Origin: a virus
Taxonomy: Duplodnaviria > Caudoviricetes
Strand: one strand, 5' to 3'
IMG/VR virus record: IMGVR_UViG_3300043395_004688
DNA: 64,000 nt
Shown here: piece after piece, positions 49,422-63,338 of the stretch
Numbering within the stretch: position 1 is the stretch's first letter
Layout of the letters: each line of letters starts with the position of its first letter
Notes under the pieces: generated by a model
Databases searched by the model: none
Told to the model about the DNA's origin: nothing
What the model saw: the letters and a program-made list of their open reading frames with translations, nothing else
Translations under genes and position numbers: made by a program

Positions 49422-49452
49422 TTGACAATACTAGGCAACTGTAGTATAAATA
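49422..49452 (+). promoter_or_regulatory. Promoter of the tmRNA gene (sigma70 and T4-late consensus overlap)
   Basis: TTGACA-17-TATAAA; the -10 extends to TATAAATA. Confidence 0.8.
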
Positions 49453-49456
49453 TCTT

Positions 49457-49733
49457 TATTGCTGTATGAAGCAACGAAAAAGGTGTTCTGGACGCCGGGG
49501 CAGTACCGGCCAGGTCCACCATAAGCATATTGGACAAATGGATACAACTAATATGCTTATGATGGGCCTGAACTAGGATCGACAGGGCAATGAGTATTGA
49601 AGTGGACAGCAGGGTAGGCGATGACCCTAAATCAAGCAAACTCAATAATTGCAAACGACAATTATTACTCTGAGGATCTACGCCTAGCGGCGTAACCCAG
49701 CGGGGCAGGAAAGGCCTTGTAACCCAACAAACC
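49457..49733 (+). ncRNA. ssrA: Circularly permuted (two-piece) tmRNA
   Basis: Acceptor piece ends GCCGG-GGCAGTA-CCGGC-CAGGTCC-A-CCA (49521). Coding piece starts GGGCCTG (49564), giving a 7-bp acceptor stem with G3:U70 and A73. Tag 49651-49695 reads ANDNYYSEDLRLAA*. Outer ends approximate. Confidence 0.93.
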
Positions 49734-49761
49734 AAGAAAGCCCACTTCGGTGGGCTTTCTT
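49734..49761 (+). terminator. Rho-independent terminator after tmRNA
   Basis: AAGAAAGCCCAC-TTCG-GTGGGCTTTCTT. Confidence 0.9.
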
Positions 49762-49776
49762 AGTGTAAATACCTAT

Positions 49777-50748
49777 ATGAGAAAATTCTTCTGTCCTGCG
49801 CCCTGGCGTTCAATTTATTATCATGTTGACAAAGCAGCAGTATGTTGTGTCAGTGCTAAGAAATTTAGCATGACACCAATGCAATTTGTTAACAGTGATT
49901 ATCTCAAAGAGCTAAGGCAAAAATTTTTAAACGAGGAATTTGACGACACCTGTATTACCTGCAAACGCTTAGAGGACGCAGGTTTACAAAGTGTTAGACA
50001 GCACATGGTTGGGCTATATGGAGAGAACATAACTTCTACTATAGATTACATGGAACTACGGACCAGCAATCTTTGTAATTTTCAATGTAAGATGTGCAAT
50101 GCAGAGTCAAGTTCATTGATTGCAAACGAAGTTTTTAACATAACAGATGAAAACTTCAATGAAATATTACTAATTGCTCAAAATTTAAAAACTCTAGTGC
50201 TCACTGGTGGCGAACCAATGCTGATAAAGCATTACTATGAGTTATTAGATCATTTAGCAATGCTTGGCAAACCAGATCTCAACCTACGCATATACACAAA
50301 TGCCAGCGTATACAATCCAATTTTTATAGAAAAGATTTTGAAGTTCAACACTAGGCTACATTTAAGCATTGACGCAGTAGGTGACACAGCAGTTGCACAA
50401 CGAACTGGGACCAACTGGACAGTAGTCAACGAAAATGTCAATAAGTTTTTAGAGCTTCCAATCCGTATTCAATTCCATACCACTCTGACCACAATATCAT
50501 TGTCAGACATTCATTCTTTGGCAAAGTATTTTTTTGATATAGCAACTAAAAAACCATCATGCACTTTTAATATTCATACAGCACGCCGGCCAGCACACTT
50601 GTCTGTGTTTAACATCGACAAAGACGAAATCCCAAAAACTGTTGAAAGCATTGATGCTGCATTAGAGATTCTTACTTTACCAAATTTTAACCAGTTTAGA
50701 AATCAACTGATATCTTGCCGCCGCGCCATAACTGCCAAACTCAAATAA
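49777..50748 (+). CDS. Radical SAM protein with N-terminal Cys cluster
   Basis: SNLCNFQCKMC (CxxxCxxC), LTGGEPML, YTNAS, LSIDA; N-terminal FCPAPW..CC and C..C cysteines. Confidence 0.88.
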   Translation: MRKFFCPAPWRSIYYHVDKAAVCCVSAKKFSMTPMQFVNSDYLKELRQKFLNEEFDDTCITCKRLEDAGLQSVRQHMVGLYGENITSTIDYMELRTSNLCNFQCKMCNAESSSLIANEVFNITDENFNEILLIAQNLKTLVLTGGEPMLIKHYYELLDHLAMLGKPDLNLRIYTNASVYNPIFIEKILKFNTRLHLSIDAVGDTAVAQRTGTNWTVVNENVNKFLELPIRIQFHTTLTTISLSDIHSLAKYFFDIATKKPSCTFNIHTARRPAHLSVFNIDKDEIPKTVESIDAALEILTLPNFNQFRNQLISCRRAITAKLK

Positions 50749-50825
50749 GACAAGTTGCCAATTTTTTCTTGACATTGCCAATGTCTTGTGTTAGAATATA
50801 AAATGACTTGTAAAGCGGATTTTTT

Positions 50826-51380
50826 ATGGCAATAGAAAGCAAGACTTGGATCACCAGCGACATCCATTTTTATCACCACAATATCTTAAAGTATTGTGCT
50901 GACTCGCGCCCCTACAGCGATGCCACGGAAATGAATGAGGTGATTGTTAGTCAATGGAATGCTATAATCAGTCCTATTGATCGAGTTTACATTCTAGGTG
51001 ATGTTGCATTTGCAGATGCTCAAAGGTCTGCTCGTATTGTCAACAGGTGCTTTGGTGAAAAGATTTTAATTACAGGAAATCATGATACCAAAAATCTCAA
51101 TGACTATAACTACAGGTCTTGTTTTTCTCAAATTCACAATTACCTAACTGTGAATCACAAGGGAACTTTTGTAGTAATGTTCCATTATCCAATTTGGGAA
51201 TGGGACCAAATGCATCAAGGTTCGGTACACTTTCATGGTCACTTGCATGGTCGTCCACATGGAATTCAAGGACGCATCATGGATGTAGGCATGGATCTCA
51301 ATGGGTGTACTCCGTTTTTGTTAGATGATGTGGTAAAACAGGCTCTACAGCAGCCTATACGCCAACATTATGCAAGGTAG
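50826..51380 (+). CDS. Calcineurin-like metallophosphoesterase
   Basis: SDIHF.H, ILGDV, GNHD, MFHYP, FHGHLH, DVGMD. Confidence 0.9.
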   Translation: MAIESKTWITSDIHFYHHNILKYCADSRPYSDATEMNEVIVSQWNAIISPIDRVYILGDVAFADAQRSARIVNRCFGEKILITGNHDTKNLNDYNYRSCFSQIHNYLTVNHKGTFVVMFHYPIWEWDQMHQGSVHFHGHLHGRPHGIQGRIMDVGMDLNGCTPFLLDDVVKQALQQPIRQHYAR

Positions 51381-51458
51381 TTTGGAAATTACCCAGCAAA
51401 AATCGTGGTAAATACTAGTATGCAGTTTCCACTGCATTTTTTAAAGGAAATTAAACTA

Positions 51459-52022
51459 ATGAAGAAGCTATTTGTAATTGCGGCACTTGCCGTAGCCACT
51501 CTGAGTGGTCAGGCTATTGCAGCCGATTCCGTTACCTTGGAAGGTCAATCCATTCAGGGTCGTGATGGTGCTGCTGATGCCAAAAACTTTAACATGACTG
51601 TTCGTAGAGACATCAACTCTATTCTAAGTGGACATGTTCAAGCTAGTGGCACACAGACTGACACTACAAATGCACTGACAAATCGACTAGAGGCTGGCCT
51701 AACAGCTTCCATCAAGCTTGTTGGTCCATTCAGTGGGTACACAACAGTCGCAGCCGGTGAAGCGTTTAGAGCTGTGGGCAACTACAGTTACTATTCTGTG
51801 GAGCCTGGCGTTCGTGCTGCCCTTGGTGCTGGCCTTTCGGCCCATGCTGGTTATCGCTATCGTGCTGCCTTTGATAGCGCCATTGCTGATACTACCAGTA
51901 CAGCTCGCGTAGGTCTGTCTTATGCCATTACCAAGCAAGACAGCATTGGTGTTCGCTATGACAGAGTCATGCAAGATGCCAAGCAAGATGTTTTTGCATT
52001 GAACTACACTCGTAGTTTCTAA
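51459..52022 (+). CDS. Outer-membrane beta-barrel protein
   Basis: Signal peptide MKKLFVIAALAVATLSGQAIA, amphipathic strands, C-terminal YTRSF; AAGGA RBS before 51459. Confidence 0.8.
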   Translation: MKKLFVIAALAVATLSGQAIAADSVTLEGQSIQGRDGAADAKNFNMTVRRDINSILSGHVQASGTQTDTTNALTNRLEAGLTASIKLVGPFSGYTTVAAGEAFRAVGNYSYYSVEPGVRAALGAGLSAHAGYRYRAAFDSAIADTTSTARVGLSYAITKQDSIGVRYDRVMQDAKQDVFALNYTRSF

Positions 52023-52049
52023 GCCAATCTAAATTAGATTAGTTTAGCC

Positions 52050-62074: not shown

Positions 62075-62095
62075 GGATAGGTTTAGTACAAAAGT

Positions 62096-62170
62096 GCTCC
62101 GTTCGTCTATCGGTTAGGACGCTGGCCTTTCACGCCGGAAAGAGGAGTTCGATTCTCCTACGGAGCACCA
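62096..62170 (+). tRNA. tRNA-Glu(TTC)
   Basis: Cloverleaf, anticodon arm CTGGC-CTTTCAC-GCCGG, encoded CCA. Confidence 0.96.
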
Positions 62171-62328
62171 TTTGTTATTTGTTTAGTGTTATCAGGGTAT
62201 CGTGTTGGGACGCCAACACTATGCGGGCCTAACTGGCGAGGGACAGGTCCTGAGATAACTGCTTAGTCGCTGTGGCACGGAAGCACCGTACGCCTAAATT
62301 GAGCAGATAGCACTAAACAAATAACAAA
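62171..62328 (+). ncRNA. Unassigned structured RNA between tRNAs
   Basis: 23-bp terminal helix (62171-62193 with 62306-62328) enclosing several hairpins. Confidence 0.65.
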
Positions 62329-62334
62329 CGCAAT

Positions 62335-62420
62335 GCCCGGATGGTGGAATAGGTAGACACAAGAGACTTAAAATCTCTCGCCTTTTAGGTGTGCCGGTTC
62401 GAGTCCGGCTCCGGGCACCA
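62335..62420 (+). tRNA. tRNA-Leu(TAA)
   Basis: Cloverleaf with long variable arm, anticodon arm AGAGA-CTTAAAA-TCTCT, encoded CCA. Confidence 0.96.
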
Positions 62421-62427
62421 AGGAATG

Positions 62428-62532
62428 GGGACTGGCGCCGCCGGCGCCTTGCACTTGTCGGGAGGACAATGTGCCCAGCTCTTGTACTGGAGAGGCTCCT
62501 GGTGTCAGGAGCGCAAGTAAGCTGCGTAGTCT
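62428..62532 (+). ncRNA. Unassigned cloverleaf-like RNA element
   Basis: CTTGC/GCAAG stem closing three hairpins; GC-rich against an AT-rich background. Confidence 0.45.
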
Positions 62533-62582
62533 TAAACGACAGAAAGAAGTTGCGCCCACTGGATTTTTAAGATAAATAGTTC

Positions 62583-63254
62583 ATGTTAATCAAACCAACC
62601 ATCATTGATGAGAATTTTCTAGATCAAAGCGAGCGCAATGGTATTAGAACCAAAGTTCTTGCGCTCAAAGATCGTTGGAAAATTGTAATTCCAAGTCAGG
62701 AAGAACATATCTTAGGAGCCATGCTGCCCGCCGGCATGTATTCTAAAAACTATAATTCAGCAGAAATACCTGAGAGCAATGATGTAATGATGAGAAATTT
62801 CTCGGCTGTGTATGAAAAAGTAAAAAATAGGTTAAGTGAATATTATCAACGTCCAATTATTTTTCATCCAGACTTGCAGTTGCCAGGATTTCATGTGTTT
62901 TCAAATACCAAAGACACAACCAGCACCTATAACCGAGTTAATTTTCACAAAGATGCATTTGATGAAATTCATTATTATATGCCAGTGGGGCGCATTGATT
63001 CAATCATAGTTCCCATTGAGCTGCCAGTCACTGGAGGAACATTGGTTTTTAACGAATTTCGTACCAGTAAAGATCGACGCTTGCTAGCAATGGACAACGA
63101 TCAAAGTTTTACATATTCGCCTGGTATGATGGCAATTTGGTCTGGAGACTTAATGCACTCAATTGGACCAATGACACTAGAGCCAGGCGAGCATCGGATT
63201 ACATTGCAAATGCATGTAAATTTAATCAACAGTCAAGGAACTGTTTTTTGGTAA
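62583..63254 (+). CDS. 2OG-Fe(II) oxygenase-like protein
   Basis: FHKDAF...TGGTL...GDLMHSIGP...RITLQ (HxD...H...R). Confidence 0.72.
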   Translation: MLIKPTIIDENFLDQSERNGIRTKVLALKDRWKIVIPSQEEHILGAMLPAGMYSKNYNSAEIPESNDVMMRNFSAVYEKVKNRLSEYYQRPIIFHPDLQLPGFHVFSNTKDTTSTYNRVNFHKDAFDEIHYYMPVGRIDSIIVPIELPVTGGTLVFNEFRTSKDRRLLAMDNDQSFTYSPGMMAIWSGDLMHSIGPMTLEPGEHRITLQMHVNLINSQGTVFW

Positions 63255-63262
63255 ATTAATTT

Positions 63263-63338
63263 GGGGGTGTAGCTCAGTTGGGAGAGCGTTAGCTTTGCAA
63301 GCTAAATGTCGTCGGTTCGATCCCGTCCACCTCCACCA
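63263..63338 (+). tRNA. tRNA-Ala(TGC)
   Basis: Cloverleaf, G3:U70, anticodon arm TTAGC-TTTGCAA-GCTAA, encoded CCA. Confidence 0.97.

Follow-up and report, generated by a model that had tools for sequence, protein, structure and literature searches.

The DNA studied here is a stretch of 64,000 nucleotides (the window), which corresponds to the minus strand, positions 205-64204, of a 177.7-kb IMG/VR virus record, IMGVR_UViG_3300043395_004688, that is about 53% complete. The region in question is 49422-63338 (coordinates are those of the window, and features lie on its plus strand unless otherwise stated), which holds a two-piece transfer-messenger RNA (tmRNA) and a transfer RNA (tRNA) array with an attenuator, a boxA-like site and a structured RNA. 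It appears that this region is the translation-support end of a divergent, uncultured freshwater jumbo myovirus, and that its parts are functionally related modules, independently transcribed and independently inherited, which are reshuffled between phages and do not form one regulon. We give this reading as a whole a probability of about 0.65. A sequence-only reading of the same DNA had joined these parts, together with an RNA ligase and a phosphoesterase, into one integrated translation-rescue regulon directed against host defences, the link between the parts being given as a hypothesis. The parts do all relate to translation and several of them co-occur genome-wide; a coordinated regulon directed against defences was not supported.

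A separate sigma70 promoter close to the consensus serves each of three units, the tmRNA, tRNA-Gly and tRNA-Glu, and the 12 kb that separate the tmRNA from the tRNA array hold some 20 unrelated genes, which lie on either strand. The whole 177.7-kb contig has 17 near-consensus sigma70 promoters (at most one mismatch in 12), all on one strand; five of these serve the region 49422-63338 separately, and the other 12 lie elsewhere on the same strand. The distribution of the parts among other phages is a mosaic. Several parts do co-occur within the genomes of large freshwater phages: of the 24 records that are 40 kb or longer and contain the 160-nt RNA described below, 13 have a permuted tmRNA above the cut-off. 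The attenuator is found at the same locus as the 160-nt RNA in no more than about 10-15% of cases. Among five near-complete genomes, the tmRNA was above the cut-off in three, the ligase-like DUF6267 protein was present in four and a strong match to the phosphoesterase family phrog_547 in two, with the parts scattered over tens to hundreds of kb. Co-occurrence across related genomes, which had been proposed as a check on the regulon, is thus seen for the tmRNA with the 160-nt RNA, and the overall pattern is mosaic. The separate promoters and the mosaic distribution imply that the elements are related by theme, and that they are separately controlled and separately inherited.

A scan of IMG/VR with the 3' core of the tmRNA gave at least 120 viral loci, and about 95 of those listed hold a permuted tmRNA. 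About half of the listed loci share a T4-type gene order, exonuclease, tmRNA, small open reading frame (ORF), endolysin, gp33, gp59 and gp32, and most of them have no tRNA within 6 kb. This location of most tmRNAs, in a replication module without tRNAs, speaks against the alternative that the tmRNA, tRNAs, attenuator, boxA unit, unknown RNAs, ligase and phosphoesterase make up one coordinated system, which senses the stalling of ribosomes by host nucleases that cut tRNA or mRNA and restores translation. In its favour, all the parts have to do with translation or RNA, failed translation of the leader would plausibly lead to more tRNA transcription through the attenuator, the phosphoesterase and the tmRNA are found 1-20 kb apart in several genomes, and it is known that phages use tRNAs against defences that cut tRNA (PMC10264068, PMC11464382). 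Considering the separate promoters, the gap of unrelated genes and the mosaic distribution, such a system is nevertheless quite unlikely. The ligase lies 25 kb away among replication genes and the phosphoesterase is of a generic kind. SmpB and RtcB were not found on the contig, which is about 53% complete, and Rnl1 was not found there either, with a model whose control also matched nowhere. The classic targets of tRNA nucleases (PrrC, colicins, VapC, PARIS) are the tRNAs for Lys, Tyr, Asn, Asp, His, Arg and fMet. The six tRNAs seen in this phage do not belong to these targets, and tRNA-Lys is not among the six.

The tRNA-Gly unit starts at promoter P1 (61735-61764; TTGACA-18-TATAAT, 12/12 of the sigma70 consensus). 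Five nucleotides after its -10 box begins a leaderless leader ORF of 22 codons, MMLNIVNLPGNTGPATEDSLGS (61770-61838), a shortened member of a family of leader ORFs that are 35-55 codons long. It overlaps an attenuator (61827-61894) in which antiterminator arms at 61827-61836 and 61861-61870 compete with a terminator at 61865-61887 and its T-run. The terminator, CCCTGGA/TCCAGGG-T7, ends 5 nt before tRNA-Gly. The same layout of P1, ORF and terminator is found in the relative L143, which is identical here to L182 and L188 and counts with them as one independent relative. Both promoters, P1 and the P2 described below, and the terminator are conserved in L143, and the ORF keeps its reading frame there, with changes that are synonymous.

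The attenuator terminator, whose loop is conserved and whose stem covaries, was found in at least 119 IMG/VR viral contigs. Upstream of about 90 of the 108 distinct copies there is an ORF of 35-55 codons that ends 27-37 nt before the terminator, and in about 80% of copies a tRNA follows shortly downstream. An antiterminator of at least 6 bp, which pairs the 3' end of the ORF with the 5' flank of the terminator and shares the CCC of the latter, is present in 81 of 92 sequences (88%), as compared to 2.7% of shuffled controls and 20% of mismatched partners. Variant classes of the arms keep their pairing, and the 5' arm is always located 0-25 nt upstream of the stop codon. The ORF is kept in 93 members of the family, always with an invariant ATG, and the long forms have an invariant Trp. 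It is often leaderless, some members have Shine-Dalgarno sites, and a stretch D-R-T-P-E is semi-conserved.

These features support an attenuator in which completed translation of the leader favours termination. A ribosome that translates the leader ORF to its stop codon would cover the 5' arm of the antiterminator, the terminator would form, and transcription would stop before tRNA-Gly. If the ORF is left untranslated, or the ribosome stalls early, the antiterminator would form instead and the RNA polymerase would read into the array. The conserved leader-ORF attenuator could in this way couple the transcription of the tRNA array to the status of translation. The attenuator had been proposed earlier from the letters of this one phage, and the leader ORF, the terminator and the antiterminator are indeed conserved. 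One detail of that proposal was discarded, the helix 1:2 (CAGAGGA/TCCTCTG), which is not conserved in L143. A sensor specific for tRNA-Gly was also rejected; it is contradicted by the Gly codons, which are few and variable (GGU, GGA, GGG), as well as by the family itself, which precedes tRNAs for Tyr, Trp, Asn, Cys, Ala, Glu and others. No run of codons for a sensed amino acid or tRNA was seen in the leaders, only the single invariant Trp of the long forms.

Another explanation would be that the product of the small ORF is a functional micro-protein and the terminator simply belongs to its gene, the tRNAs being expressed by leak-through or from P2 only, with no attenuation taking place. The same terminator hairpin follows an unrelated conserved gene of 133 amino acids (…YTGFQLDSCTSVGFKLTT) in about 12 contigs (L211, L218, L220, L286, L289, L301, L318 and others), which implies that it is reused as a general-purpose terminator in these phages, and the invariant Trp, the D-R-T-P-E stretch and the occasional Shine-Dalgarno sites would also fit a protein product. 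On the other side, a covarying helix between the last codons of the ORF and the 5' arm of the terminator, present in 88% of members, is superfluous for a mere terminator, and about 80% of the elements head a tRNA array. Outside its conserved residues, the peptide varies greatly in both sequence and length. Its codon-position entropy is flat, 1.38, 1.28 and 1.39, as would be expected of a regulatory leader and not of a folded protein. We therefore consider the micro-protein unlikely and keep to the attenuator.

It is conceivable, as a tentative extension, that the attenuator family acts as a sensor of translation stress. A leader left unfinished because of tRNA cleavage, ribosome shortage or some other defence aimed at translation would then turn on the array and its embedded RNAs. 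If so, the tRNA arrays of phages would serve as a counter-measure that is induced when needed, instead of supplementing codons constitutively, and the tmRNA would free stalled ribosomes in parallel.

It was also possible to observe, between the attenuator and tRNA-Trp or tRNA-Ala in other loci (L131, L136, L139, L144, L155, L176, L189 and others), some 170 nt of conserved non-coding sequence, located 0-180 nt after the terminator. It starts AGTGCAAYGGCAACGAGAGCC and contains AAATGGGCGGCCTGTA, and it may be another RNA embedded in the arrays.

The second transcription unit of the array (62004-62074) consists of promoter P2 (62004-62032, 11/12 of the sigma70 consensus), a hairpin at 62040-62057 and a boxA-like site, GCTCTTTGACAA, at 62060-62071, 27 nt after the P2 -10 box. 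The site agrees with the boxA consensus GCTCTTTAACAA at 11 of 12 positions and also shares the TTT that follows. In L143 the corresponding sequence, GTTCTTTAACAATTT, is a conserved island amid diverged flanks. When tRNA-array loci were compared, 8 of 11 boxA-like matches (6 of 9 when redundant ones were removed) were situated 13-74 nt upstream of tRNA-Glu or tRNA-Gln, several of them with a visible consensus promoter, and such sites precede these two tRNAs in at least six other lineages. No boxA-like motif was found upstream of the RNA genes in the 120 tmRNA loci listed, so the support comes from the tRNA-array loci only. The boxA of P2 would load the host proteins NusB and NusE, and this would shield the long untranslated transcript, with tRNA-Glu, the 160-nt RNA, tRNA-Leu and onward, from premature termination. 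We found no publication on boxA ahead of phage tRNA arrays.

The sequence-only reading had described a boxA-protected unit of tRNA-Glu and tRNA-Leu with two unknown RNAs. The boxA-like site and one structured RNA were recovered, and the second RNA was not. The RNA that stands lies between the two tRNAs (62171-62331) and represents a new structured family of about 160 nt, with a long closing stem, three inner hairpins and an invariant core. In this phage its fold gives z = -7.0 with a closing stem of 23 bp. The family was built from a two-sequence model and a scan of IMG/VR with the core motif, which resulted in about 80 full-length copies scoring 116-187 bits. In the alignment 97.2% of cells are paired and 27 of 42 pairs show compensatory changes, and the covariation is 0.412 as compared to 0.138 for shuffled and at most 0.064 for slid alignments. 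Nearly all copies are inside tRNA arrays with their 3' end abutting the next tRNA, and the RNA would be released by the tRNA-processing enzymes. Rfam gave no match at E <= 10 over 62171-62334, and homology with T4 rnaC or rnaD was rejected, the family model having no match to either. One homologue of the 160-nt RNA occurs in a gap between tRNA-Ile and tRNA-Ala where also a second RNA-like element is seen, about 175 nt long and with a closing stem of 14 bp (L118:12085-12259, minus strand).

The candidate that was dropped is the GC-rich spacer 2 (62421-62582). Its fold is no better than that of shuffled sequences (z = -1.2), neither blastn nor nhmmer found a match in 1.76 Mb of related loci, and in the closest relative a tRNA-Asp takes its place. 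The spacer is possibly the 5' region of an inserted ORF, 62583-63254.

The four tRNAs of the region, all of which had been predicted, were confirmed where they had been placed: tRNA-Gly(GCC) at 61900-61975, tRNA-Glu(UUC) at 62096-62170, tRNA-Leu(UAA) at 62335-62420 and tRNA-Ala(UGC) at 63263-63338. With a tRNA-Val and a tRNA-Thr just past the window end, six tRNAs were seen in total. The tRNA set matches the dominant codons of the phage, the comparison being with the phage's own usage. The Gly(GCC) tRNA covers 74% of the phage Gly codons, Glu(UUC) reads GAA, which makes up 77%, and the tRNAs with U34 read the most frequent A-ending codons of the phage, whose GC content at third codon positions is 0.37. 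The array would thus supply tRNAs for the phage's own commonest codons, with at least two entry points for transcription, P1 and P2.

Some observations weigh against the reading of separate, translation-related modules or against its individual parts. The tmRNA and tRNA arrays co-occur in all five complete genomes at E <= 0.001, and there may be some functional coupling of the tmRNA with the arrays. The incomplete contig ends inside the tRNA array, and further parts may be missing from it. The flat codon-position entropy means that translation of the leader is deduced from the maintenance of the ORF and not from a coding signature. The 22-codon short form of this phage is without the invariant Trp codon of its family, and this leader may work differently or not at all. 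Finally, taken by itself the boxA motif does not reach significance in the window, with 2 matches as compared to 0.48 expected.

That the region belongs to a phage is suggested first by its surroundings. Tail sheath, tail tube, large terminase, tail fibre, helicases, DnaB and a class I ribonucleotide reductase are encoded upstream of 49422-63338, and the tail sheath shares no more than about 41% identity with its counterparts in jumbo myoviruses of the PA5oct, RaK2 and Atu_ph07 type. A T4-late-like TAARTA box 4-6 nt before the ATG precedes nine ORFs of at least 60 amino acids in the window, where 0.17 would be expected, and five of these nine starts fall within the region. This TAARTA-N4-6-ATG arrangement confirmed the leaderless-type gene starts that had been proposed. 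The IMG/VR record is labelled as a provirus, tmRNA genes are common integration sites of prophages (PMC9004378), and the tmRNA fits a betaproteobacterial model, promoter included, all of which could mean that the end with the tmRNA and tRNAs is a piece of host chromosome taken up at the edge of a provirus and that its RNA genes are bacterial. The GC content is however uniform, 41-43%, as far as the contig end, the ORFs in the region are mainly orphans or members of phage families, and the late-promoter motif is found at five of its gene starts. Homologous tmRNA cassettes, attenuators and 160-nt RNAs occur beside T4-type genes in hundreds of viral contigs. Taken together, the phage genes upstream, the flat GC, the phage-type ORFs and the TAARTA starts imply phage DNA in spite of the label, and a host flank was rejected as hardly credible. 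When the 15-kb stretch was compared with GenBank phages by megablast, two tRNAs matched and nothing else did, and scans of IMG/VR with single proteins, ORF 62583-63254 and the phosphoesterase, gave no close relatives.

The two-piece (circularly permuted) tmRNA was confirmed from its sequence. ARAGORN calls a permuted tmRNA at 49408-49762 with the tag ANDNYYSEDLRLAA and then a stop, and the Rfam models tmRNA_permuted (RF04321, 135.7 bits) and beta_tmRNA (RF01850, 114.3 bits) both match over their full length. The beta_tmRNA alignment runs from a TTGACA-17-TATAAA promoter (49422-49450) to a terminator hairpin, so that the gene has its own promoter and terminator. The order is permuted, with the 3' strand of the acceptor stem and the T-arm ahead of the 5' acceptor strand and the tag frame. 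The acceptor stem GGGCCUG/CAGGUCC, followed by ACCA, carries G3:U70, A73 and CCA, which on sequence grounds are the identity elements for alanyl-tRNA synthetase (AlaRS), and the tag has hydrophobic residues and AA right before the stop codon. The tmRNA would be made from its own host-type promoter and presumably charged by the host AlaRS, and together with the host SmpB it would presumably release ribosomes that have stalled and tag what they were making. Its T-loop (49490-49510) reads GGCAGUA, without the usual UUC, while the T-stem is intact. A distant blastn search with the tmRNA found nothing.

Among the other phage tmRNA loci, long tags of 24-31 residues were seen in L048, L066, L097, L106, L024, L029, L081 and L113, one of which starts ANADTFDFSAMSF and ends ALAA. 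At L116:672-1059, two tRNAs with the amber-reading anticodon CUA, labelled 'Pyl' by ARAGORN, adjoin a two-piece tmRNA.

The tmRNA is followed by a twitch-domain radical SAM protein (49777-50748; NF033640, 195.6 bits), which starts after TAAATA-N5, the late, leaderless type, and which has no evident link to RNA. Further downstream, comparison of neighbourhoods pointed to a signal-peptide protein that resembles viral outer-membrane beta-barrel proteins (51420-52022) and to a virus-only orphan protein of about 90 amino acids (52143-52415). Among the at least 120 tmRNA loci listed, the outer-membrane-like protein is immediately 3' of the tmRNA in 11 phage loci, and the orphan just 3' of it on the same strand in 26. 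The order tmRNA, outer-membrane-like protein, orphan recurs in T4-like phages (L018, L019, L047, L071 and others) and in this unrelated jumbo phage, which suggests that the three genes move together. The two companions gave no translation-related lead, and neither is an RNA-repair gene.

An RNA ligase and a phosphoesterase had been counted among the parts of the region, and only the latter is inside it. The phosphoesterase (50826-51380; phrog_547, 1.6e-49; PDB 1xm7, 5.7e-12) is by its sequence matches a generic calcineurin-like enzyme, and it lies near the tmRNA in 6 of the 120 tmRNA loci listed. No RNA ligase is encoded within 49422-63338; both ligase-type proteins are 12 to 25 kb outside. 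One of them has an OB-fold and an RNA_ligase domain in an Rnl5-like architecture (23210-24286) and is part of the replication/recombination module, among gp32-like, RecA-like and helicase genes. The other, which had been noted as a "KxDG" domain, is DUF6267 (36267-37349), at the C-terminal end of a 1074-residue ORF (34128-37352). DUF6267 is usually a stand-alone phage protein of about 383 residues (521 homologues), and here it is fused to an N-terminal region of 713 residues. It has invariant K36-x-D38-G39, G-H-E-G-x-V (337-342) and K351, and its predicted structure is confident, with a predicted local distance difference test score of 92. When this model was compared with VIA-align, an exhaustive structural aligner, the top 21 rows were ligases or capping-type enzymes at middling Z scores of 5.0-7.4, and the best matches were ATP-dependent ligases, led by nick-sealing RNA ligases (Z 7.4-6.1). 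Foldseek returned nothing at E <= 0.001, and a sequence profile search of PDB gave no ligase. The domain is a candidate for a ligase-like nucleotidyltransferase fold.

The ensemble is of an ordinary kind for the translation-support region of a large phage, and what appear to be undescribed so far are three conserved RNA-level control or structural elements: the attenuator family, the boxA arrangement and the 160-nt RNA. It is useful to know that the attractive picture of a single regulon fails and that the parts are shuffled modules. A role against defence is already in the literature for phage tRNAs (PMC10264068, PMC11464382). Of the anti-defence idea for this region one part survives as an inference, the attenuator, which could be the sensing element that had been postulated, and which gives the hypothesis a concrete mechanism that can be tested. 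The reason why phages carry tRNAs, codon supply or evasion of defence, has been debated for about 50 years. A widespread attenuator on a tiny leader ORF, supported by covariation, is a directly testable handle on this debate, and the recurrent rRNA-style boxA at the head of arrays is a further one.

Phage two-piece tmRNAs have been catalogued before, including the synteny with gp33 in the OM43 phage Melnitz, an aquatic T4-like myophage (PMC9004378). This phage resembles Melnitz in having a permuted tmRNA with an early host-type promoter in a lytic-type myovirus, and in IMG/VR relatives the tmRNA is, as in Melnitz, situated just upstream of the gp33 coactivator (PMC9004378). The differences are that the tmRNA here is of the betaproteobacterial type (RF01850) and belongs to a jumbo phage similar to RaK2 and PA5oct, and that its T-loop is GGCAGUA in place of the usual TPsiC-type loop. 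Next to it are genes for a radical SAM enzyme, a phosphoesterase and an outer-membrane-like protein, and no glutamine riboswitch was detected.

In phage T4, Pnkp and Rnl1 repair tRNA against the anticodon nuclease PrrC. The phage studied here likewise encodes a predicted ATP-dependent RNA ligase and a phosphoesterase, but the ligase is of the OB plus Rnl2/5 type and not Rnl1, it belongs to the replication module, at a distance of 27 kb from the phosphoesterase, which for its part has no kinase domain, and no tRNA-Lys was seen.

The attenuator is similar to the leader-peptide attenuators of trp, his, thr and pheA in that a short ORF comes right after the promoter, the antiterminator and the terminator are mutually exclusive, and the stop codon is placed so that a terminating ribosome blocks the antiterminator. 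It differs in what is controlled, tRNA and non-coding RNA genes instead of amino-acid biosynthesis. It also differs in its construction, with no regulatory codon run, an ORF that is often leaderless and no conserved 1:2 pause helix, and the Rfam leader models do not match this leader. The boxA unit can in the same way be compared with the rrn boxB-boxA leader, which is bound by NusB, NusE, NusA, NusG and SuhB, and with the nut boxA of lambda. The motif here likewise comes shortly after a strong promoter and a hairpin, and it heads a long untranslated operon of stable RNA. The operon here is one of phage tRNA and non-coding RNA and not of rRNA, no boxC or N-type phage protein was identified, and the site is a candidate boxA, as judged from its sequence.

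The 160-nt RNA finds its closest likeness in T4 rnaC and rnaD and in the phage RNAs ROOL and GOLLD (PMC12286853), the last two known from the neighbourhood of tRNA islands. What is shared is a structured RNA set within a phage tRNA cluster that seems to be freed by the tRNA-processing enzymes. In size the 160-nt RNA falls well short of ROOL (about 580 nt) and GOLLD (more than 800 nt). With it, the few RNAs known from inside phage tRNA clusters gain a second family with good support.

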